NCBI GenBank assembly: GCA_049322255.1
Contig: JBMORE010000002.1
Span: 1-42,698 of the forward strand
Origin: Myxococcota bacterium
GTDB lineage: Bacteria > Myxococcota > Myxococcia > Myxococcales > Myxococcaceae
Length of the DNA stretch: 42,698 nucleotides
Reading direction: 5' to 3'
Part shown: positions 22,917 to 33,709 of the stretch, piece after piece
Numbering within the stretch: position 1 is the first letter of the stretch
How the letters are laid out: each line of letters begins with the position of its first letter
Made by a program: the position numbers and the translations under genes
The notes under the pieces: model-generated
Database searches by the model: none
What the model saw: the letters and a program-made list of their open reading frames with translations, nothing else
Told to the model about the DNA's origin: nothing

Positions 22917-23243
22917 TCAAGGCAGACGGGGGTGGAGGAAGCGCGCGAGCGCGAACAAGTCCTCCCAGTCGAGCTGATCGAACTCCAAACCCACCTCGTC
23001 ACTCCCGCGGCGGCGCACGGTGCATGCGGTGACCACCTCGCGATCGCCGGGCAGTGGAATCGCCACCGCCAGCCGGTCGCGTGGCAGGCCAGGGTCGCTC
23101 ACCAGACACAGGCCGGCCATGGAGAGGTCACGCGCCTTGGCCAAGAGGGCACGACCGTCGACGAGGAGCTTCACCATGAGATTGGCTGGCACGCGCGGGT
23201 GGAAGCGCTCGGCGGGCTCGGTGCGGGAAGGAGCGGTCTGCAT
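22917..23243 (-). CDS. Stand-alone PilZ domain protein
   Basis: RFHPR (RxxxR) and DLSMAG (DxSxxG), VGLEF. Confidence 0.85.
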   Translation of the reverse strand: MQTAPSRTEPAERFHPRVPANLMVKLLVDGRALLAKARDLSMAGLCLVSDPGLPRDRLAVAIPLPGDREVVTACTVRRRGSDEVGLEFDQLDWEDLFALARFLHPRLP

Positions 23244-23278
23244 GGGCTCACCTTTGAGAGCGACAGGCTGGTAGCAGT

Positions 23279-24649
23279 TTGGCTCAGCCGGGCCGCCCCG
23301 CAACTTTTCGGCCAGCGAGGCGCAGCGAGCGAGAGGTGGGAGATCGTCGCAAGCCGTGCTCAGATGTGCGTCGCTTGGGCCATCGACCTACGGCATTGGT
23401 GCTCTCAGGAGGCGGTGCACGCGGCGCGTACGAGGCGGGCATCATTCGCTATCTGCGCGAGGAGCTGCCGCCGTCGGTACGCCCGAGCGTGCGCTTCGAC
23501 ATCTTGTGTGGCTCTTCGGTGGGGGCGATCACCGCGTGTTTTCTCGCGGCGACGATGGACGACCCACCCAACCAAGGCAAGGTACTGGCCTCGCTGTGGT
23601 CGGACCTCACCCTCGAGCAGGTGTACAAAGTTCACGGCCAAGACTTGTGGACGCTGGTGCGCAAGATGTGGCGGGCGGCGACCAACGAGCCGCTTCGGCC
23701 GGAAGGGTGGAGGCTCTATGACATCCTCCACCCCGAGCCGCTGGAGGAGATGGTGCGCACCCACGCCCCCTGGCCGCGCATCTCCGCCAATTTGGCAAAA
23801 GGCCTGTTCCTCGCCCTCTCGGTGTCGGCCACCAAGATCAGCTCGGGCTCCACCATCGTGTTCGTTCAGCGAAGGGAAGGCGGCGTGCCGGCGTGGAGCC
23901 GCGACCCCTACAACATCGCGCGAGAAGCCATCATCGGACCGGAGCACGCGCTGGCTTCGGCGGCGATCCCGCTGCTCTTCCGATCGGTGAAAATTAGCGA
24001 CGAGTACTTCTGCGACGGCAGCGTGCGACAGAACACACCCTTGTCGCCCGCCCTGCGCCTGGGGGCGGAAAAGGTGCTCATCATCTCTTTGCGGTATCGC
24101 CCCAAGGGCCTTCCTCCCGGGCGGCCGCTCAAGGGTTACCCCACCACCCCGTTGCTGATGGGCAAGGTGCTCAACGCGCTGATGCTCGACCACACCGATT
24201 ACGACCTGGATCGCTTGCGCCGCTTCAATGCGTTGCTCGAGGCGGGCGAGGCCACCTTCGGGGCAGATTTCATTCCCAAGATGAACGAGACGGTGCAGCG
24301 AATGCGCGGGCAGCCCTATCGCCTGGTGCAGGACATGGTCTTACGGCCCTCACGCGACATCGCCACCATCGCCGCTTCCCACGCCAAGAAGCGCCGCATC
24401 CGCGACGCGAGCGCGGTGACGTTGCCCACCAAGCTCTTGCACCGCATCGCCCAGAGCCAGCTGATGACCGAGGCGGACTTGGCGAGCTACCTGCTTTTCG
24501 ACGGCGACTACGCCAAAGACCTGATGACCCTGGCGATGGAAGACGCTCACGCCCAGCGTGAGGAGTTGATGGCGTTCTTCGCCGATGACACGTCTCGCCG
24601 TCCGCGCCGCGGGATGGACGACGTGCCTCCGGACCCGAAGGTCGCCTAA
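23279..24649 (+). CDS. Patatin-like phospholipase (true start may be GTG 23336 or 23366)
   Basis: LVLSGGGARG, GSSVG nucleophile, ASAAIP, DGS catalytic Asp. Confidence 0.9.
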   Translation: MAQPGRPATFRPARRSEREVGDRRKPCSDVRRLGHRPTALVLSGGGARGAYEAGIIRYLREELPPSVRPSVRFDILCGSSVGAITACFLAATMDDPPNQGKVLASLWSDLTLEQVYKVHGQDLWTLVRKMWRAATNEPLRPEGWRLYDILHPEPLEEMVRTHAPWPRISANLAKGLFLALSVSATKISSGSTIVFVQRREGGVPAWSRDPYNIAREAIIGPEHALASAAIPLLFRSVKISDEYFCDGSVRQNTPLSPALRLGAEKVLIISLRYRPKGLPPGRPLKGYPTTPLLMGKVLNALMLDHTDYDLDRLRRFNALLEAGEATFGADFIPKMNETVQRMRGQPYRLVQDMVLRPSRDIATIAASHAKKRRIRDASAVTLPTKLLHRIAQSQLMTEADLASYLLFDGDYAKDLMTLAMEDAHAQREELMAFFADDTSRRPRRGMDDVPPDPKVA

Positions 24650-24729
24650 GTCTTCGAAATTCCGTCGCTGGCGTCAGGCACGCCGGGTGAATCCAACGCC
24701 TTCCGACTCGCTTTCCTTCGGAGGTCGTC

Positions 24730-25167
24730 ATGGATTCCCCCCACCGTATTCAACCCACTGCTTTCACTCCCACCGTTGGCCGCCAGACCCCCAAGGTCGA
24801 GTTCGGCGAGGTTCTGGCGCACACCATTCGTCGCGTGGCTCACGTCGGAGGTGCACTCGCCAGCGGCATGGCCACCGGGATACCGGTGGTGAGCGCGGCG
24901 GTCTCGGGAATCCAGTCGATGGTGACGGCCGCCTCCTCCGTACGGGGCTCGGCGGTGGCGCCCATCGGGTCGCGTGCCTCTGCTTCCACCGCCGAAGCGG
25001 TGCAGCCGGACAGCACCGCGCTCCTCGACCTGCAGAGCCAGCAGAGCGAGTACTACCTCAAGCTCCAGTGGGAGATGCAGCGCGAGAGCCGCGAGTTCAA
25101 CGCGCTCTCCAACGTGCTCAAGGTCCGGCACGACTCGGCAAAGGCCGCGATCAACAACATCCGTTAG
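24730..25167 (+). CDS. Putative T3SS needle/filament subunit (SctF/PrgI-like C-terminal helix)
   Basis: GGAGG SD; C-terminus LQWEMQRESREFNALSNVLKVRHDSAKAAINNIR resembles recalled PrgI; first gene before sctI-sctJ. Confidence 0.55.
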   Translation: MDSPHRIQPTAFTPTVGRQTPKVEFGEVLAHTIRRVAHVGGALASGMATGIPVVSAAVSGIQSMVTAASSVRGSAVAPIGSRASASTAEAVQPDSTALLDLQSQQSEYYLKLQWEMQRESREFNALSNVLKVRHDSAKAAINNIR

Positions 25168-25177
25168 GGAGGCTGCC

Positions 25178-25570
25178 ATGGCGATCGACAAGATTTCGGG
25201 TGCTGGCGCTTCCCCGCCGGTGCCCGTGGCGGACGCTGGCAAGGAAAAGTTCGGAAAGGTTCTCTCCGCGGCGCGTCTTGCGAACCCCCAACAGGTCGCG
25301 CGGACTGGTCAGTTGGAACCGTGCGCACCGTCCAAGGCGCAACCCGCTCGGTCGCTGAAGGCTGCCGAGGTGCTCGACCAAGTGAGCGCGGCACAGAAAC
25401 GGCTCGATCAGGTGCTGGCCATGGCCCAATCGGGCAAGACCTTCACCCCGGCAGAGCTGTTGGCGATGCAGGCGCACGTCTACCGCGCCAGCCAAGAACT
25501 CGATCTGGCCGGGAAGGTCGTCGAGAAGGCCACCAACGGCGTCAAACAAATTCTCCAGACACAGGTGTGA
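25178..25570 (+). CDS. Putative T3SS inner-rod protein (SctI/YscI/HrpB-like)
   Basis: C-terminus PAELLAMQ..ELDLAGKVVEKATNGVKQILQTQ matches the SctI pattern; directly before sctJ; GGAGG SD. Confidence 0.7.
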   Translation: MAIDKISGAGASPPVPVADAGKEKFGKVLSAARLANPQQVARTGQLEPCAPSKAQPARSLKAAEVLDQVSAAQKRLDQVLAMAQSGKTFTPAELLAMQAHVYRASQELDLAGKVVEKATNGVKQILQTQV

Positions 25571-25587
25571 AGGAGGAGCGCCCTTCC

Positions 25588-26385
25588 ATGAAGCTCCAAC
25601 GATTGACCTGCTTTCTTTTCGCCAGCGCCGTGTGGGTCACCGGTTGCCGCTCGCAGATTCAGCAATCGCTCGACGAGCGACAGGCCAACGAGCTGCAGAC
25701 CGTGCTGGTTGAGCGGGGGTTCGATGCGCGCAAGGTGCCGGTGTCAGGCAAGAAACCAGCTTGGGCGGTGGAGGTCCCCAATGAACAGGCGTCCGATGCC
25801 GTTCGGGTTCTTGCCGAGCTGGGGCTTCCGAGGGCAACGGTGCCGACGACGATGGATGTCCTCGGCCGCGGAGGCCTCGTCCCCACGCCTGCCGAAGAGC
25901 GAGCGCGAATGGTCGTCGGCCTCGCGGGAGACCTTGCGCGGACGCTCGAGTCACTCGACGGAGTCGCCTCAGCCCATGTGCATTTGGTGCTGCCACCGCC
26001 AGCGCGATCTGGACAGGCTCCAGTCGAGGCCAAGGCTTCTGCGCTGGTGAGAGCTTCCCCCGGAGCGGCGGCTCGAGTGACCCAGATCAGGGAAGAGCTG
26101 AAGGCGCTCATTGCTGGAGGCGTCGAGGGGTTGACCGCGGGCAACGTGACGTTGGTGGTGAGCGAGGTGGCCACTCACGTGCAAAGCCCGGTGGCGGGGT
26201 CGTCGCCGGTGACTCGCCTGCGAGTCTTGCTGACGGCGATGGGCATCACCGTGTCGGTGCTCGCGGTCGTGATGGTGCTGTTGACGCTGCGGATCCGTCA
26301 CTTCCGAAACTTGGTGACGAGGGCGTCACCCACCGCGAAACCTCAGCCGAGCCCGCCGCCCCACGTCGCCCGCCGCGCGGCCTAG
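25588..26385 (+). CDS. sctJ: T3SS inner-membrane ring lipoprotein SctJ (YscJ/PrgK family)
   Basis: Lipobox VTGC, LDERQANE, LGLPR, GLVPTPAEERAR, TLESLDGVASAHVHLVLP, ASALV, IAGGVEGL, C-terminal TM. Confidence 0.92.
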   Translation: MKLQRLTCFLFASAVWVTGCRSQIQQSLDERQANELQTVLVERGFDARKVPVSGKKPAWAVEVPNEQASDAVRVLAELGLPRATVPTTMDVLGRGGLVPTPAEERARMVVGLAGDLARTLESLDGVASAHVHLVLPPPARSGQAPVEAKASALVRASPGAAARVTQIREELKALIAGGVEGLTAGNVTLVVSEVATHVQSPVAGSSPVTRLRVLLTAMGITVSVLAVVMVLLTLRIRHFRNLVTRASPTAKPQPSPPPHVARRAA

Positions 26386-26393
26386 GGAGCCGA

Positions 26394-26837
26394 ATGATGG
26401 CCCGCTCGATCCATGAAACGACCCGAATTCTCGCCGTGAGCACGAGGGTGGTGGAAGTGCCCGGAGAGAGCCAACCAGAGCGAATCGCTTTGTTTGCCTG
26501 CGCCCTCGACAAAGGCGGGGTGCTGACGTTGCTCGAGTCCTTCGCCGCCGTTCAAAGGTCGGAAGCCGAAACCGCGGCACGCTCGGCCCTTCGGTGGGGT
26601 TCAGCACTCCGGCAGGCGCGCTTGGAGCGGGTGTTCGGAATCAGAGACGGTGCAGAGCGCGCGGCGCGGGCGCTGTTGGCGCAGGCCGGTCATCACCTAC
26701 GTCGGGAGGCTTTTAGAGGGTTGCCCTCCTTTTTGCGGTCGCACTTTCCCACCCTGCAGCTCGACCTCGCCCAGCCCGCTGGATCTCCCATGGTGCGGGT
26801 CTTTGCCCAACGCCTCGTTCGGGAAGCCATTCGCTAA
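26394..26837 (+). CDS. Hypothetical protein in the SctK/OrgA position
   Basis: Helical ORF directly after sctJ; start uncertain; function by position only. Confidence 0.5.
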   Translation: MMARSIHETTRILAVSTRVVEVPGESQPERIALFACALDKGGVLTLLESFAAVQRSEAETAARSALRWGSALRQARLERVFGIRDGAERAARALLAQAGHHLRREAFRGLPSFLRSHFPTLQLDLAQPAGSPMVRVFAQRLVREAIR

Positions 26838-26987
26838 GACCGCCCTGTCACGTCGCTGACGCGACCACCGTCTCGCACGGTGAACAGTCGTCTTCCGACA
26901 GGACCTTCGTTCCCCTAGCCAGCGCAAGAACGAAAATGAATTCAACAGGTTGTCGTTGGTTCTTTTTTTGAAGAAGCAACAGCCGCG

Positions 26988-28166
26988 ATGAGAGCGGCCC
27001 ATTCCCCAATTCCGATTGCTTCCCAAGCACGGGCTCCTCAGCCGTTCGCGAAGATCAAGCGGCTGGGGGTTCGAAGTTTGACGCGGGCGCACCTGGCCCT
27101 CTGCTCGAGGCCCACGCTGGCGTCCCAGATGAGGGAGGCAGTCCAGAAGGTCGCGACCGTTCTCTCGAATCCATTGGGTGGCACGGTGGAGCTCGAGGGC
27201 CGGGTGCTCGCAGCAACGACCAACCCCTTTGAGGTATTGGCGCAGCAGGCCGGCTTTGCGGTGCTGGAGCTTTCAGCGGTGGGGGCCAAGGCCGTTCTCG
27301 AGGTCGAGCTTCCGCTTCTGGTCGCGCTTCTCGAGCGCATCGCCGGCAGCTCAGAAGGCGCCGGGCCAGCGACGAGGCTCACGAGAATTGAAGAGGCCGC
27401 ATTCGGCTACCTGGTGCTTCTCAGCCTTTCCGCGCTGCGCCCCGTGGAGTTTATGGAGAAGCGGTTTGCTCCCCGGCTCATCTCGGTCCATGGCGATCGA
27501 GGTGAGGCGCTCGATCACATCGATACCACACCGCGCCAGATTGCCTTTGCGCTGACAGTGACTCTCGGTGAGGTGACAGGCTCGGCGCGTGTCTATGTCC
27601 CCGCCGCTGCCGTGCAGGCATCGGTCCAGGACGTTCCCGTTCATCAGGAGCTGCCCATCGCTTCCGAGGTGATGGCAGCAGGTCTGGTCGCCCGCGTTTT
27701 TGCAGGACGGGCGGCGCTCGCCCTCGATGACCTCATGGAGCTGTGCGAAGGCGACGTCGTCATGTTCTCGGGGCTGACGATGTCCGCGGGCCGGCTCAGT
27801 GGCCCAGGTCGCTTGGTGACGCGCACGTTCGAGCTCCACGGCAACTGCAGTGACAAAGGTTTCACCTTCTCTCGCGCGACGCTCCGCGCCTTTACCCAGG
27901 AGTCGATGATGTCCTCGAAGCACGATGTCGCCAATGAACCCACCCAGCAGCTCCCGATCGAGGTGGAAATCGAGCTGGCCCGGGTACGCCTCTCGGTGGC
28001 CGAGCTCGCCCAGCTTCAAGTGGGCGCGGTCTTGCCCCTGCACATCCATCTCGCCGAGCCGGTGATCCTGCGTGTCGGAGACCGCGAGGTGGCTCGTGCC
28101 GAGCTCGTCGACATCGAAGGCGAGGTGGGGACGCGAATCCTCGCGCTGCTGTCGAAAGAAAGGTGA
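26988..28166 (+). CDS. sctQ: T3SS cytoplasmic ring protein SctQ (FliM/FliN-like, tandem SPOA)
   Basis: LDDLMELCEGDVV and LPIEVEIELARVRLSVAELAQLQVGAVL..VARAELVDIEGEVGTRI. Confidence 0.88.
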   Translation: MRAAHSPIPIASQARAPQPFAKIKRLGVRSLTRAHLALCSRPTLASQMREAVQKVATVLSNPLGGTVELEGRVLAATTNPFEVLAQQAGFAVLELSAVGAKAVLEVELPLLVALLERIAGSSEGAGPATRLTRIEEAAFGYLVLLSLSALRPVEFMEKRFAPRLISVHGDRGEALDHIDTTPRQIAFALTVTLGEVTGSARVYVPAAAVQASVQDVPVHQELPIASEVMAAGLVARVFAGRAALALDDLMELCEGDVVMFSGLTMSAGRLSGPGRLVTRTFELHGNCSDKGFTFSRATLRAFTQESMMSSKHDVANEPTQQLPIEVEIELARVRLSVAELAQLQVGAVLPLHIHLAEPVILRVGDREVARAELVDIEGEVGTRILALLSKER

Positions 28167-28170
28167 CGTC

Positions 28171-28575
28171 ATGGAAGCGCTGCGCTCCCCCAAGCACAAA
28201 GTCATTTTGGTGTCGGTCCTCCTTCTGCTGCTTGCGTTTGCAGCGTCGCGAAACGGCATCGATGCGGGCGGAACGGCGCGATGGATTCTCGGCCTCGCTG
28301 CGGTGGTCGGAGGCGTGATGTGGTTTCGAAGGACCAGAAAGGTCAGCGCCCGGTTCCCGATTCCTACCCGCCTCGAGGTCGTCTCCAGGGTGGGGCTGTC
28401 GCCACGCTGCGGCTTGGCGCTCGTTTGCGCCGAGGGGCGCAGCTACCTCGTCGTGCATGGAGACGGGTACGCCGAAATCACCGAGATGCCCGCGGCGCAC
28501 AAGCTTCGGGCACGCCATGGTGCGCCCAGCGGACGCTCTTGTCGTCGTCTGCCGAGAAAGGAGGGGACGAGATGA
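28171..28575 (+). CDS. fliO: FliO-like protein
   Basis: N-terminal TM helices then RLEVVSRVGLSPRCGLALVCAEGRSYLV; sits between sctQ and sctR. Confidence 0.75.
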   Translation: MEALRSPKHKVILVSVLLLLLAFAASRNGIDAGGTARWILGLAAVVGGVMWFRRTRKVSARFPIPTRLEVVSRVGLSPRCGLALVCAEGRSYLVVHGDGYAEITEMPAAHKLRARHGAPSGRSCRRLPRKEGTR

Positions 28576-29234
28576 ATCCCGAAAGCTCTTTCGCCGGGCA
28601 GCCAGTTTCCATGCTGGGCCTGTTGGCTCTGATGGCCCTGGTGCCGTTCGCGGTGGTGATGCTCACCAGCTTCTCGAAGCTCGCAGTCGTGCTCTCCATC
28701 GCCCGCTCAGCGATGGGTACTCAGCAGGCTCCGCCCACCATCGTCCTCACCGGGCTCGCCGCCGTGCTTTCGGGCCACATCATGGCTCCGGTGGCGCAGC
28801 GCATGTACGACGCCGGCCAGCTCGCCTATCAGGAAGCCGGTTCGAGTGGGCAGGTGCTTGCTTCTGCGGCCCGCGTCGGCCAACCACTGCGTGAATTCCT
28901 CCTCAAGCACGGCAGCCCGGAGGAACGCGCCCGCTTCGTCGAGCTGGCGCGCGAGCTAAGACCGGCGGAGGAAGCAGAGCTGGTGAGCGAGGAGGATCTC
29001 GCCGTGGTGGTCCCCGCCTTCGTCATCACCGAGCTCAAAGAGGCCTTCCAGATCGGGTTCCTCGTCTTCTTGCCGTTCCTGGTGCTCGACATGCTCATCG
29101 CCAACATCCTTCTGGCGCTGGGCATGCAAACGCTCTCACCCAGCCAGGTCAGTCTTCCCTTCAAGGTTCTCCTCTTCGTCGCCGTGGACGGTTGGGCGCT
29201 CCTCGCCCGGGGGCTGATTCTCGGTTACCGGTGA
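28572..29234 (+). CDS. sctR: Export gate SctR (FliP family)
   Basis: MLTSFSKLAVVLSIARSAMGTQQAPP, PAFVITELKEAFQIG, FKVLLFVAVDGW. Confidence 0.95.
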   Translation: MNPESSFAGQPVSMLGLLALMALVPFAVVMLTSFSKLAVVLSIARSAMGTQQAPPTIVLTGLAAVLSGHIMAPVAQRMYDAGQLAYQEAGSSGQVLASAARVGQPLREFLLKHGSPEERARFVELARELRPAEEAELVSEEDLAVVVPAFVITELKEAFQIGFLVFLPFLVLDMLIANILLALGMQTLSPSQVSLPFKVLLFVAVDGWALLARGLILGYR

Positions 29235-29239
29235 TGGTG

Positions 29240-29509
29240 ATGACTCAGGACATGCTCATCGCGTTGGGCCGGGAAGCGTTGCTCCTCATGGTGCTGGCGT
29301 CGTTGCCACCCGTCGGGGCCTCGTTGGTGGTGGGCTTTTTGATGAGCCTTTTTCAGGCCACCACTCAGCTCCAAGAGAGCACCCTCACCGTGGTCCCCAA
29401 GCTGTGTGCCGCTGTGCTGGCCTTGGTGCTTGCCGGACCGTGGATTTCCTCCCAGCTGGCGCGCTTCACCACTCAGCTGTTGCTGGCGTTGCCGGAGGTG
29501 GCGTCGTGA
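29240..29509 (+). CDS. sctS: Export gate SctS (FliQ family)
   Basis: SLFQATTQLQESTLTVVPK, GPW; alternative start 29234. Confidence 0.93.
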   Translation: MTQDMLIALGREALLLMVLASLPPVGASLVVGFLMSLFQATTQLQESTLTVVPKLCAAVLALVLAGPWISSQLARFTTQLLLALPEVAS

Positions 29510-30297
29510 TTGCCGTGGAGCTCGGCAGGATCGTCGAGCTGTGGTTGCCCCACGTCGTTGGGGTGGCCCTGTGTGGCGCGCGCTTTTTGCCGGTGGCTTT
29601 TCTGTGTCCTCTCTTTGGCGGCGTGTCTGCTCCTACCACTGTACGGCTGGCCTTGGTGCTCACGCTGGCGATGGCCGTTCATCTCGCCGGCGGCGTCGGG
29701 GCTCCTCATGTGGACGGTGCGTGGAGCTTCGCCGGCGCGGCCGTGAGAGAGCTGCTCTTTGGCATCTCGCTGGGGCTCATCGCCTCGCTCCCATTCGACG
29801 CGGCGCGCATGGGCGGTCGCTTCATCGACCTGTTTCGCGGGTCGTCGGCGGAGGCGACACTGCCCGCCGCCGGCACCCAGGAGTCGGCCACGGGGGACGG
29901 CCTCTATCAGCTCCTGGTGGCATTGGCGGTCAGCTCTGCAGCTTTTCCGGCGGTGTTGGGCGGACTGTTCAAGAGCTTCCAGGTGGTGCCGCTGGGCGCT
30001 TTCGTCGCCCATGAGTCGGTGGCGATGACAGGGGTACGGACGGCCACGGCGGCGCTGACGACGGGGTTGGCTGTCGGAGCGCCCATCGCTGGCGCGGCAA
30101 TGGCCGTCGACTGCGTGCTCGGTTTTGCCTCTCGCATCGCCCCACAGATGAATTTGCAAGAGGTGGGTGCGCCGCTGCGCATTCTCGGCGGTGGAGCGGT
30201 GGTTTGGCTGAGCCTGGGCGTCTTGTGCGAACGGCTCCTCGGTGAGGTGCTGGGCTTGGAGCACATGCTCCACTCGCTGTCGGAGGCCGCGCGATGA
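29506..30297 (+). CDS. sctT: Export gate SctT (FliR family)
   Basis: ARFLP..PLFG, ELLFG, MGGRFIDLFRG, SRIAPQMN. Confidence 0.9.
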   Translation: MIAVELGRIVELWLPHVVGVALCGARFLPVAFLCPLFGGVSAPTTVRLALVLTLAMAVHLAGGVGAPHVDGAWSFAGAAVRELLFGISLGLIASLPFDAARMGGRFIDLFRGSSAEATLPAAGTQESATGDGLYQLLVALAVSSAAFPAVLGGLFKSFQVVPLGAFVAHESVAMTGVRTATAALTTGLAVGAPIAGAAMAVDCVLGFASRIAPQMNLQEVGAPLRILGGGAVVWLSLGVLCERLLGEVLGLEHMLHSLSEAAR

Positions 30298-31346
30298 GCC
30301 AGAAGACCGAGCAGCCGACACCCAAGCGGTTGGCGGAAGCGAGGAAGAAAGGAGAGCTGCCTCGCAGCCGCCTGCTTTCCGCATCGGCGGTCACCGCTGG
30401 CGCCGTGTTCGCAACCCTCGCCTTCGCCACGTCATCGGCACAACGCATCATGGACTGGACCCGCGCGCTGTTTTCCTCCCCCGACGTCTTGGCCCATGCA
30501 GCGCTGGGAGAGGCGCTGCTCGTCTTGGGGTGGGTGGTCGCCCCGGCGCTTTCCGGTGCGCTGATCGCCTCGATGGTCGTGTCGCTGGCCACGGTGGGCT
30601 TCCAGCTCAACCCGGGGTTGGTGGCACCCAAGCTCGAGCGTGTCGATTTCTTCGGTGGCCTCCGGCGCCTCTTTTCGGCACGCCGACTCGTCGATCTCGC
30701 CAAGGGGTTGCTCGTCGTCGCGCTCACCACCTGGCTCGTGTGGAGCGCGGTGATGGAGGCGGCACCCGCGGTGCTGCGGGCGGTGGTGCTGGAGGGCACC
30801 GGCTCGCTCGAGGTGGTGCTCGCGCAGGTTGGCCTTTTGGCGAAGCGCTGCGCCCTCATGGTCCTCGTTCTCGGGGTGGGCGACTTTCTGCTCGCCAAAC
30901 GGCGCCATCAGAAAGACCTGATGATGAGCCGTCGAGAAGTAGAGCAGGAGCACAAGAACAGCGAAGGCGATCCGCATCACAAGGCCAAGCGCAAGGCGCT
31001 CCACAAGCAACTGGCGAACGGTGGCGTGGCACGAGGGGTGCGCCGAGCCACCGTCGTGGTGGTGAACCCCACGCACATCGCGGTGGCGCTGCGGTACGAC
31101 GAGTCGGAATGCGATGCGCCCTACGTCGTCGCCAATGGCCGTGAGGAGGACGCGCTGAACATCCGCCGGGAGGCGAGGCAGCTGGGAATTCCGGTGGTGA
31201 AGAACGTGGGCTTGGCGCGCAGCCTCATTCACTACGACGTGGGCGAAGAGGTTCCCGAAGAGCTCTACAAGGCGGCCGCCGCGGTCCTCCAGGTGGCACT
31301 CGACGTGCGCGAGGCAGAGGCCAGCGCGAGGAAGGAAATGCCATGA
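30294..31346 (+). CDS. sctU: Export switch protein SctU (FlhB family)
   Basis: KTEQPTPKRL..ARKKG, MMSRREVEQEHKNSEGDP, NPTH autocleavage motif. Confidence 0.95.
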   Translation: MSQKTEQPTPKRLAEARKKGELPRSRLLSASAVTAGAVFATLAFATSSAQRIMDWTRALFSSPDVLAHAALGEALLVLGWVVAPALSGALIASMVVSLATVGFQLNPGLVAPKLERVDFFGGLRRLFSARRLVDLAKGLLVVALTTWLVWSAVMEAAPAVLRAVVLEGTGSLEVVLAQVGLLAKRCALMVLVLGVGDFLLAKRRHQKDLMMSRREVEQEHKNSEGDPHHKAKRKALHKQLANGGVARGVRRATVVVVNPTHIAVALRYDESECDAPYVVANGREEDALNIRREARQLGIPVVKNVGLARSLIHYDVGEEVPEELYKAAAAVLQVALDVREAEASARKEMP

Positions 31347-33385
31347 GCCAGCTCGAAGGCTTGCTGACGCGGGCGAAGAAGTCCTCCGACGTCGTGCTGG
31401 CGGTGGTGGTGGCCGCCATTTTGGGAGCGATGGTCGTCCCCTTGCCTCCGTGGCTCGTCGATGTCGGCATCGCCGTCAATCTGGTGGCGTCGGTGTCTCT
31501 GCTCGTGGCGGCGCTCTACGCGCAGAACGCTCTCAAGGTGGCGGCGTTTCCCACGCTGCTCCTGCTCACCACGCTTTTCCGGCTGGCGCTCAACGTCTCC
31601 TCGACCCGGCTGGCGCTCTCCGACGGGCACGCGGGCGACATCATTCAGGCGTTCGGCGAGTTCGTGGTGCGGGGTGACTACGTGGTGGGTGCGGTGGTGT
31701 TCGTCATCCTCACCCTGGTGCAGTTTTTGGTGGTGGCCAAGGGCGCCGAGCGCGTCGCCGAGGTGTCGGCCCGCTTCACCCTCGATGCGATGCCCGGCAA
31801 GCAGATGTCGATCGACGCCGACCTGCGCGCGGGGGCGATCGACCAGGCGCAGGCGCGCGCGCGGCGCAAAGAGCTGGAGCGGGAGTCGCAGTTGTTCGGG
31901 GCCATGGACGGGGCGATGAAGTTCGTCAAAGGTGATGTGGTCGCCAGTCTGGTCATCGTGCTGGTCAACCTCCTTGGCGGAACCGCGATGGGCGTCCTCC
32001 AGGGTGGGTTGGAGCTCGGTGAGGCCGCAGCGACTTATGCGCTCCTCTCCATTGGTGACGGGCTGGTTTCGCAGCTGCCCTCCTTGTGCATCGCGATCGC
32101 CGCCGGCCTGGTGGTGACGCGGGTGAACGCCGAGGCCGACGATGGGTCTTTGGGCGCGGAGATTGGCTATCAGTTCTTCGGACAGTGGAAGGCGCTCTTC
32201 GTGGTCGGAGGGTTGTCGATTGCGCTGGCGGCCGTCCCGGGGATGCCCGCTGTTACCTTCTTGCTCCTCGCGGCTGCGTGCGGAGCCGTGGGGTACGGGC
32301 TCAAGCTGCTCCACGAGCGAAGACAGAACGCGCCGGGGCAGCCTTCGTCCTCGCCGACGTCGGCGAGTCTGCAGGCAAAGTCGCAAGAGCCGGCCGTGGG
32401 GGTCTCCCCGCTGGTACTCGACCTGGCGAGCAACCTCACCGAGTGGGCGCAGGCCGACGGCGGCAAGCTCGTGCACGAGGACCTCCAGCGCCTCAAGGAG
32501 CAGCTCTTCTACGAGCTGGGCCTTCGGCTCCCCGGCATTCGCGTGCGCACCGGTGCGAGCTACCTGCCGGCGGGCGGCTACGCCTTGCAGATCGACGAGG
32601 TACCCTGCGGCAGCGGGCAAATCGTTCCCGGTGAAATCTACGCCCTCGCCGCGCCGAGCGACGTTTCCTCCCTCGGGTTCGATGTCCAGCCGGCGACCGA
32701 GCCGGTCTCGCTCAAGTCGATTTGCCGCCTTCCCGCGGAGGCGCGTCCACGGCTCGAGGCGGCACAGGTGGCGACCCGAACCGCCACGCAGCTGGTCACC
32801 GGTCATCTTGCCGCCCTCTTGCGCAAGCGGGCGGCGTCGCTTTTGGGCGTGCAGGAAGTGCAAGCGCTGCTCGAAGCGCTCGAGCCGGTCGCTCCTGCCC
32901 TGGTGAAGGAGGCCCTCCACAAGGTCCCGTTGCCGCTGCTCACAGACGTTTTGCGCCAGCTGCTCCGGGAGGAGGTCAGCATTCGCAACCTCCGCTGCAT
33001 TCTCGAGGCGTTGGTCAGCCCCACCACCGAGGGCGACGTCCACGCGTTGGCCGAGAAGTGCCGGCAGGCGCTGCACCACTATTTGAGCCACAAGTACGCA
33101 CCTGGCGGGCCGCTGTTCGCTTTTCTGGTCGACCCGGCGGTGGAAGAGGCGCTGCGGGAGGGGGGTGGCGAAGGGGCGCTCGACCCCGCCCAGGTGGGAG
33201 GCATTCTCGAGGGTGTGCACCGAATCGCCCAGGGGGGCCGCGCGGTGCTCCTGGCCTCGCCCGACGTCCGCCGGACGCTGCGCCGGCTCATCGAGGGGGC
33301 CTTCCCCGAGGTCGCGGTGCTCACCTACGGCGAGCTCGACGCGGACCTGCAAGTCAAGCCGATTGGGCGGTTGGCGGCGCTTTAG
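31343..33385 (+). CDS. sctV: Major export apparatus protein SctV (FlhA family)
   Basis: FPTLLLLTTLFRLAL, KGAERVAEVSARFTLDAMPGKQMSIDAD, GAMDGAMKFVKGD, GDGLVSQ, EVSIRNL. Confidence 0.96.
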   Translation: MSQLEGLLTRAKKSSDVVLAVVVAAILGAMVVPLPPWLVDVGIAVNLVASVSLLVAALYAQNALKVAAFPTLLLLTTLFRLALNVSSTRLALSDGHAGDIIQAFGEFVVRGDYVVGAVVFVILTLVQFLVVAKGAERVAEVSARFTLDAMPGKQMSIDADLRAGAIDQAQARARRKELERESQLFGAMDGAMKFVKGDVVASLVIVLVNLLGGTAMGVLQGGLELGEAAATYALLSIGDGLVSQLPSLCIAIAAGLVVTRVNAEADDGSLGAEIGYQFFGQWKALFVVGGLSIALAAVPGMPAVTFLLLAAACGAVGYGLKLLHERRQNAPGQPSSSPTSASLQAKSQEPAVGVSPLVLDLASNLTEWAQADGGKLVHEDLQRLKEQLFYELGLRLPGIRVRTGASYLPAGGYALQIDEVPCGSGQIVPGEIYALAAPSDVSSLGFDVQPATEPVSLKSICRLPAEARPRLEAAQVATRTATQLVTGHLAALLRKRAASLLGVQEVQALLEALEPVAPALVKEALHKVPLPLLTDVLRQLLREEVSIRNLRCILEALVSPTTEGDVHALAEKCRQALHHYLSHKYAPGGPLFAFLVDPAVEEALREGGGEGALDPAQVGGILEGVHRIAQGGRAVLLASPDVRRTLRRLIEGAFPEVAVLTYGELDADLQVKPIGRLAAL

Positions 33386-33709
33386 CTACAGCGCGCCGCC
33401 CGATTCGCTGCCCGGTGTCGCCTGTTGAGCGGGGGGCCGATTCACCCGGTCGCGCAGCTCTTTGCCGGTGCGGAACAAGAGGCCGCGCTTGGGCTTGACG
33501 GGGATGACTTGCCCCGTCTTGGGGTTACGGCCCTGGTAACCGGGGTAGTCCTTCACGTGAAAGGCGCCCAGCCCCCGAATCTCGATGTTCTCGCCGCGGC
33601 AGAGAGCGTCTCTCATCGAATCGAAGATGGTCTCGATGGTCGCTTCCGCCTGCTTCTGTGTCACCCCGCGCTTGGCGACCAAAATGTTGATCAAGTCCGA
33701 CTTGAGCAT
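33386..33709 (-). CDS. HU/IHF-family DNA-binding protein (IHF beta-like)
   Basis: MLKSDLI, IEIRGLGAF, GRNPKTG, FRTGKELRDRVN; AGGAG SD. Confidence 0.93.
   Translation of the reverse strand: MLKSDLINILVAKRGVTQKQAEATIETIFDSMRDALCRGENIEIRGLGAFHVKDYPGYQGRNPKTGQVIPVKPKRGLLFRTGKELRDRVNRPPAQQATPGSESGGAL

Follow-up and report, generated by a model that had tools for sequence, protein, structure and literature searches.

The locus considered here raises the question of how a type III export gate can operate when the genes that accompany it encode neither an ATPase nor a secretin, and what such a gate would export. It lies in a 42,698-nucleotide stretch of a Myxococcota genome (contig JBMORE010000002.1 of assembly GCA_049322255.1, positions 1 to 42,698; referred to as the window), where eleven co-oriented genes occupy positions 24730-33385 of the plus strand, preceded by a patatin gene (23279-24649) and followed by a convergent IHF gene (33386-33709), as a preliminary description made from the sequence alone had laid them out. 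With a probability of about 0.62 we regard the locus as the membrane half of an early-branching, secretin-less export machine which is completed by SctL, SctN and SctO from elsewhere and which exports SctI and the needle-like product of the first open reading frame (ORF1) to the periplasm. The locus itself is the ‘short’ non-flagellar type III secretion system (NF-T3SS) of the Myxococcales described by Abby and Rocha, i.e. T3SS(2) of M. xanthus (MXAN_5643-5654).

In accordance with a proposal of the preliminary description, the genome of the window (G000, 4.85 Mb, 99.6% complete) was searched for sctN, sctL, sctO, sctD, sctC and a further cluster. The search revealed a second, larger T3SS cluster, the ‘long’ locus, at the end of contig C61 and continuing on C114. 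Its genes encode, in this order, a small helical protein, a paralog of ORF1, a TPR protein, an unknown protein, a FliA-type sigma factor, I, J, a FliG-like K, L, N, O, P, Q, FliO and R-S-T-U, followed after U by an FlhB-C protein, LcrH-type chaperones, V and an FHA protein. Although G000 possesses two gates, its sole SctN and its sole SctL/FliH, together with the one other SctV, are all found on C61/C114. Inside the fetched short loci no match to sctL, sctN or sctO was observed (0/40).

The SctV of the long locus was present in 144/162 genomes of family f1, probably the Myxococcaceae, in 0/53 of f2, probably the Anaeromyxobacteraceae, in 5/7 of f4 and in 1/1 of f8 (the family tallies for short gate, long gate and SctN include one row for the unpublished genome G080, on which no claim depends). 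Among the 100 genomes lacking it, 80 were surveyed for SctN (all 53 of f2, all 18 of f1, five of f5 and four of f3), thereby setting apart the flagellar FlhA/FliI by identity and linkage. A Myxococcales-type SctN was detected in 55 of the 60 genomes with the short gate vs 0 of the 20 without it, a contrast which overstates the association since kin are not independent. Seven of these 20, which have neither SctN nor gate, possess flagellar genes only, and for two of the 55 (G192 and G234) the long locus is probably incompletely assembled.

Where SctN stands alone, sctL lies directly upstream and no gate gene accompanies it (19/19 examined), and a helical ORF of ~150 aa follows sctN in 16/19, with a YscO-like match in 2/4 tested. 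In f2 this module lies downstream of rpoBC, of a sigma gene and of a nikR-like gene. Five genomes (G016, G019, G022, G043 and G155) carry it right after the four-gene ABC operon which borders the long locus of G000, and in two of these, G022 and G155, it is followed by the TPR-lipoprotein gene found downstream of the long locus. A single SctR, a single SctV and a single ORF1-family gene are encoded in G022, an assembly of 40 contigs that is 99% complete; since it nests among long-locus genomes in the tree of short-locus SctV (support 99), its long locus has collapsed to exactly L-N-O. The trees suggest about four separate collapses (G022; genera g6/g7; G203; f2). The remaining ATPases carry Walker A in 19/19 cases, their ratio of non-synonymous to synonymous substitution rates (dN/dS) is 0.09-0.12, and this extra SctN is retained in genomes which also have the flagellar FliI. 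Furthermore, stand-alone and long-locus SctN form one clade in a quick tree (support 99), and a sigma54-like motif precedes sctL in 8/19 stand-alone vs 0/16 long-locus cases.

Since SctN tracks the gate and since sctL-N(-O) stands alone at the long-locus site in five genomes, the short gate likely uses an ATPase in trans, borrowing a separately encoded three-gene module to which it would dock; in G000 the source of SctL, SctN and SctO would be the long locus on C61. The preliminary description had offered a second gate that borrows its ATPase and an exporter driven by the proton motive force (PMF) only, and the co-occurrence speaks for the former and against the latter. T3SS gates can export weakly without an ATPase, as flagellar bypass mutants illustrate, and a PMF-only gate, with sctL-N-O retained by inertia or for some other task, would fit those genomes which have the gate and no SctN. 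We nevertheless consider it improbable, since it leaves unexplained why SctN was never met without the gate (0/20), why dN/dS stays at ~0.1 after loss of the remaining long locus, and why conservation extends to SctQ and its internal product SctQ-C, which are known to hold SctL-SctN.

Several observations weigh against an ATPase borrowed in trans. Such an SctN was not detected in five gate-positive f2 genomes; all five are fragmented, and three have a contig that breaks off 0.26-0.52 kb beyond the sigma gene which precedes the module in relatives, while in the other two this marker gene is not present. In the quick tree the stand-alone SctNs branch below, not inside, the long-locus SctNs, which could reflect faster evolution or a long locus that was built up later. 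SctD, the usual anchor of a sorting platform, is not available. Finally, the short locus of G061 (L129) lacks both ORF4 and sctQ, J being directly followed by FliO, although SctN is encoded in this genome, which has a long locus; this, too, would suit a PMF-only gate.

The sorting platform to which the borrowed proteins would dock is encoded in the middle of the locus. SctQ (26988-28166; TIGR02551 1e-24, PF01052 1e-20) contains a predicted internal ribosome-binding site and start (27898-28166, ATG at 27906/27909) for a FliN-like SctQ-C, and such a signal 70-90 codons before the end was found in 35/35 orthologs vs 65/445 control windows. ORF4 (26394-26837, 147 aa) occurs in 36/42 loci and matches no family. 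Its AlphaFold model (predicted local distance difference test, pLDDT, 88.8) placed FliG at the top of both fold searches, weakly (Z 6.1, root-mean-square deviation 3.0, 59 aligned, with the Z within the range of common arrangements; Foldseek E 0.8); alignment with K of the long locus by hhalign yielded 1.8%, and the ESM Atlas gave no usable match. Judged from this fold, ORF4 is likely a truncated FliG/SctK-like adaptor, so that ORF4, SctQ and SctQ-C may together form the platform that holds SctL-SctN-SctO in trans.

The gate proper is encoded by sctR (28572-29234; TIGR01102 218 bits vs cut-off 208.6), sctS (29234-29509; PF01313 4e-25), sctT (29506-30297; PF01311 1e-39), sctU (30294-31346; PF01312 2e-93) and sctV for the export-gate ring (31343-33385; PF00771 8e-203; TIGR01399 687 bits vs 577 for FlhA). 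The autocleavage motif NPTH of SctU is intact and occurs in 36/39 orthologs, NP-H being found in the remaining three; in genus g7 Ile or Val replaces Thr (L120, L130, L131). The lipoprotein ring is represented by SctJ (25588-26385; PF01514 3e-21; TIGR02544 140 bits vs 51 for FliF) with its lipobox Cys at residue 20 and a basic cytoplasmic tail motif kept in 30/38 orthologs. The SctI-like inner rod or adaptor (25178-25570; PF17001 E 4.9e-5, TIGR02497 E 0.0096) and the FliO-like export-gate chaperone (28171-28575; PF04347 E 0.036, TIGR03500 E 1e-3) remain below the curated cut-offs; for FliO, however, the family as a whole is consistent, with a PF04347 match at E<=0.1 in 34/34 aligned orthologs (best 3e-6) and the gene in 41/42 loci. 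The labels of the preliminary description thus hold for J, Q, R, S, T, U and V, which exceed their cut-offs in the profile search, and are sub-threshold for I and FliO; its ‘F’ for ORF1 and ‘K’ for ORF4 correspond to sub-threshold matches and to no confident family, respectively. By established T3SS knowledge, FliO would aid the assembly of SctR-S-T, and SctU, SctV and the SctJ ring would complete the gate. The lack of a signal peptide in SctR of the window had been taken as an injectisome trait; since ~25/37 ortholog N-termini carry a FliP-like signal peptide (judged by eye), it reads as a loss of the signal peptide in the SctR of the window.

What the gate exports depends on the identity of ORF1 (24730-25167, 145 aa), whose final 40 residues form a nearly invariant helical stretch and whose family comprises 2414 clusters at E<=0.001. 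Among 40 members the three Pfam families most often matched at E<=1 were HrpF (18), T3SS_needle_F (12) and HrpA (4), and among 128 members at E<=0.1 the same families led again (20, 8 and 8, respectively). The NCBIfam model HrpA matched 13/40 members (best 2e-4, below its cut-off), hhalign against an SctF set gave 32-33%, and a profile of the C-terminus run over 9068 ORFs retrieved a bona fide SctF as top non-myxobacterial match (E 0.21). In the ESM Atlas a cluster at 0.90 with 11% needle_F members was found, while all structure matches of ORF1 stayed at a template-modelling score (TM) <0.5. The long-locus paralog, MXAN_2434 of M. xanthus by position and size, is flanked by the small helical protein and the TPR protein in 16/21 fetched loci (in G000 the three genes span L008:2119-3655), and the resulting order, followed by I-J-K-L, mirrors the E-F-G order of yscE-F-G...I-J-K-L. 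Co-folding of this paralog with its two neighbours scored 0.57 vs 0.00 for the best control, a level that lends weak support; the mark was reached by 116/157 solved and 2/215 mismatched pairs, but at <=0.60 by only 18/157 and by both mismatches; the runs agreed in >=90% of contacts with a partner pLDDT >=64, and the score may reflect likeness to solved complexes. The TPR protein scores better with LcrH (1e-10) than with CdsG (1e-4), and a PDB search with the E-like neighbour returned chance helices only.

On this evidence we lean slightly towards a needle/pilin-like identity of ORF1 (SctF/HrpA-type). Several results point the other way: every needle-family match (best E 2e-4 to 2e-3) lies below its curated cut-off, no needle emerged when ORF1 profiles built from 40, 40 and 128 sequences were run against PDB sequences, the structural model is one long confident helix (95-144) with no clear hairpin partner (predicted TM score 0.29), and the same helix ends proteins of 260-380 aa which adjoin LcrH-type chaperones. 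The sub-threshold matches and these longer proteins would suit a machine which also takes its ATPase in trans but in which ORF1 is a second rod-like, cap or translocator-like substrate, so that only an inner-membrane ‘hat’ is built. ORF1 is, moreover, ~60 aa longer than the top-matching SctF and its expression is low. We hold this alternative to be unlikely, although the least so of those considered, because the three best-represented families are all needle or pilin families in two samples, because a bona fide SctF tops the non-myxobacterial matches and because of the Ysc-like order of the long locus. In the favoured reading SctI and ORF1 would be exported by the gate and likely assemble into a short rod or a needle-like conduit in the periplasm, and cargo would be released to the periplasm or envelope rather than injected. 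A translocon gene was not found in the locus.

Proteins with a related end occur elsewhere. In 12/12 fetched f2 loci (L209-L218, L223, L224; e.g. L209:5184-6558 and L210:5440-6764) an LcrH-like TPR gene comes after that of an ORF1-family protein of ~300-380 aa; infA is close by in the three loci that were read gene by gene, and most pairs have a canonical sigma54-like motif upstream. They are a candidate cargo-chaperone pair for the short gate. In the long loci, a helix of this kind also terminates further proteins encoded between LcrH-type chaperones (L009:11470-12249, L014:8640-9152, L179:3693-4037); these are candidate translocator-like substrates.

The age and maintenance of the system were derived from comparison across genomes. 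SctV is 55-71% identical in at least 146/162 f1 genomes, and 38/40 fetched loci show the ORF1-to-SctV run at the same site, nearly all followed by IHF/YihY/RNase G, the other two being cut or rearranged; gene order and chromosomal site are common to at least four families. In the SctV tree the short-locus clade (support 100 with FastTree and quick IQ-TREE) falls on the non-flagellar side and is separate from the long locus; monophyly of short and long SctV gave p 0.049 in the approximately unbiased test on a quick tree. Judged from these trees, the locus is an early-branching non-flagellar T3SS with flagellar traits, in line with the intermediate between flagellum and injectisome suggested beforehand. 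SctV-like proteins of Polyangiaceae and unclassified genomes (L028, L058, L066, L022, L053) form a further deep non-flagellar branch near the short locus. The preliminary description had named membership in a complete flagellar system encoded elsewhere and relaxed selection without expression as outcomes that would overturn it. SctV does not belong to the FlhA clade, and neither flagellin nor a rod/hook N-terminal domain was found by profile search in the whole genome of G000. The dN/dS values (Nei-Gojobori) were 0.02-0.60 in 52/52 gene pairs from five genome pairs, and the locus is under purifying selection and not decaying. A decaying relic of a flagellum or injectisome would account for the many missing parts, the low expression and the lack of a predation phenotype, but it is refuted by the selection data and practically negligible in view of the constant order and site, the open frames and the presence in at least 146/162 f1 genomes. 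The reading frames are intact and the G+C content is similar to the remainder of the window.

Transcription would start at a predicted sigma54-like promoter ahead of ORF1 (24675-24692), which follows the sigma54 consensus GG-N10-GA; the motif was found in 33/39 loci vs 40/3900 shuffles. A weaker second promoter is possible ahead of sctQ, where an IHF-like site and a degenerate GG-N10-GA form a candidate (26940-26971). In the window the best position weight matrix score there is only 4.8, whereas a score >=10 is reached in 12/36 orthologs, compared with 0-1 of 37-40 for internal genes, and IHF-like sites precede sctQ in 8/24 orthologs vs 17/1200 shuffles. The convergent IHF gene is a near-constant neighbour of the locus, and the IHF-like site lies at 26940-26952; a regulatory link between gene and sites is possible. 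The sigma54-like promoter defines no private regulon, since its GA form precedes 17 other G000 genes (score >=13). A sigma70 scan gave no sites and an Rfam scan no matches. In the PMC6791715 supplement, M. xanthus sctV shows 27-68 reads per kilobase per million (RPKM) at all 14 points, and MXAN_5654, the counterpart of ORF1 by position and size, was detected at 3/14 points only (RPKM 50-79). For MXAN_2434 the RPKM is 215-464. The mostly undetected MXAN_5654 argues against a long filament under those conditions and in this respect counts against the needle-like reading.

Further parts of a canonical injectisome are missing. Matches to the SctD model TIGR02500 over the cut-off were 0/12 in G000, all of them covering the FHA part only and none lying in the window. 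In the long loci of f4 (L220:12502-14733, L221) a larger FHA protein of 491-744 aa follows SctJ, i.e. in the place that a true SctD would take, and the locus seems split. The three secretins of G000 belong to pil, gsp and Kil-like operons, and no dedicated SctC was recognized among them. The Kil-like secretin was found in 0/53 f2, 0/6 g7 and 0/6 g6 genomes, most of which keep the gate, and it occurs in two f1 genomes without any T3SS. Since no secretin is linked to the T3SS and since the Kil-like one is missing where the gate persists, the borrowed secretin, which the preliminary description had envisaged together with the borrowed ATPase, is unsupported. On the same grounds a connection of the short locus with Kil predation was rejected; its role would be separate from Kil-dependent prey lysis. 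The prey-lysis system cited in the preliminary description is the other, long locus (MXAN_2434-2464), the counterpart of the window being T3SS(2). Two very small f1 genomes, G011 and G083 (L179), of 2.1-2.7 Mb have the long gate only, and G011, the one of the two tested, also has a Kil-like secretin.

The short gate might also be a spare one for the predation system T3SS*, redundant with the long gate and therefore masked in single mutants. It would share the ATPase, and the published deletion mxan_2438-2451 covers MXAN_2442 sctN and so would disable both gates. We rate this as slightly less probable still than a PMF-only gate: the short gate is kept in the f2, g6 and g7 lineages, where neither the Kil-like secretin nor the long gate was found, and it has sigma54-like promoters of its own, while none was present on nine long-locus genes tested. 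Moreover, PMC10196010 reports that T3SS(2) is down-regulated on prey and states, with reference to Thiery 2022, that it plays no part in killing. A further alternative starts from the possible second transcription unit, made up of SctQ and the FliO-R-S-T-U-V set, and holds that this set supports membrane tubes or cell-cell bridges as their platform instead of exporting protein. Flagellar CORE proteins have been described in such a role, and myxobacteria form outer-membrane tubes. This proposal is very improbable, leaving the conserved SctI, ORF1 and SctQ-C, the NPTH switch and the co-retained ATPase unexplained.

Compared with known systems, the locus is ordinary for its clade, and neither the cluster type nor its composition including FliO is new, as the preliminary description had already stated for the type. 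It shows I-J-Q-R-S-T-U-V as a single unit without SctC and SctD, which is the gene content of the short locus. Gene order and sizes agree with the MXAN_5643-5654 rows of the PMC6791715 supplement (sctV 5643, sctS 5646, sctQ 5649, 161 aa 5652, 155 aa 5654), an assignment based on order, annotation and size. In Abby and Rocha 2012 (PMC3459982), short and long Myxococcales loci form the earliest non-flagellar branch, without secretin and SctF, the latter being considered lost, and the ATPase is counted among the genes common to both variants. The suffix ‘-s’ given there to the Anaeromyxobacter system may stand for scattered. The likeness of the window to the short locus includes gene set, order, absence of secretin and SctD and wide vertical conservation; it is a divergent ortholog (SctV <=71% identical to those searched, SctR apparently without its former signal peptide), and compared with that account the ATPase lies outside the locus in every case, while the first gene of the locus is a weak SctF-like candidate. 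The names T3SS* for MXAN_2434-2464 and T3SS(2) for MXAN_5643-5654 follow PMC10196010. T3SS* is described as needleless in PMC10433427, PMC12075869 and PMC10849154, and FliO in both M. xanthus loci is reported in preprint 10.1101/2025.05.06.652439.

The long locus shares paralogs of ORF1, I, J, K, Q, FliO and R-V in the same order within the same genome, but unlike the short one it has sctL-N-O-P, the FliA-type sigma factor, LcrH-type chaperones and the FHA protein, its SctV forms a separate clade, and it is needed for prey lysis with the Kil/Tad pilus. With canonical injectisomes (Ysc, Chlamydia, Hrp) the short locus shares a non-flagellar-side SctV, lipoprotein SctJ, SctI and the internal start of SctQ; it differs from them by the presence of FliO, the absence of SctC, SctD, SctW and a recognisable translocon, and an ATPase probably supplied in trans. 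In Chlamydia one ATPase serves one injectisome gate. Scattered T3SS loci are known there (PMC3459982). With the flagellar export apparatus (FliO-P-Q-R, FlhB-A, FliG, FliH-I-J) the locus has in common FliO, a likely FliG-like adaptor and, in most orthologs, the FliP-like signal peptide, whereas it is without a FliF-length ring, rod, hook, flagellin and motor, and its SctV stays outside FlhA (support 100). As to its surroundings, the PilZ gene, which shares the 22917-24649 region of the window with the patatin gene, is a near-constant upstream neighbour of short loci; the patatin gene lies outside the system because it is present in only about a quarter of loci.

In the literature searched no paper was found that states ATPase sharing, subscription papers including Thiery 2022 and Figure 5 and five PDF supplements of PMC3459982 being outside its scope, and the word ‘SctF’ does not occur in the 11 papers listed in a search on that point. 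Evidence from natural deletions for one ATPase serving two gates and a candidate needle subunit in these ‘needleless’ systems thus appear to be new to this literature. Going further, MXAN_5654 and MXAN_2434, the latter with E/G-like chaperone flanks, could both be divergent needle subunits which build secretin-free periplasmic needles, while two deeply diverged gates share one SctL-N-O ATPase; the systems would then be a living example of a pre-secretin injectisome, a combined proposal that we put forward tentatively and at somewhat less than even odds.

The function of the locus has been in question since 2010-2012, and how cargo could pass beyond the inner membrane by the needleless T3SS* is an acknowledged gap. 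If ORF1 and MXAN_2434 are needle subunits, the step ‘SctF lost in Myxo’ of the standard scenario leading from flagellum to injectisome changes, and experiments could aim directly at two small named genes. If the short gate borrows SctL-N-O, the published T3SS* deletions which remove sctN would be double mutants, foci of SctN-YFP may report either gate, and genomes having the short locus only would provide clean models for its study.

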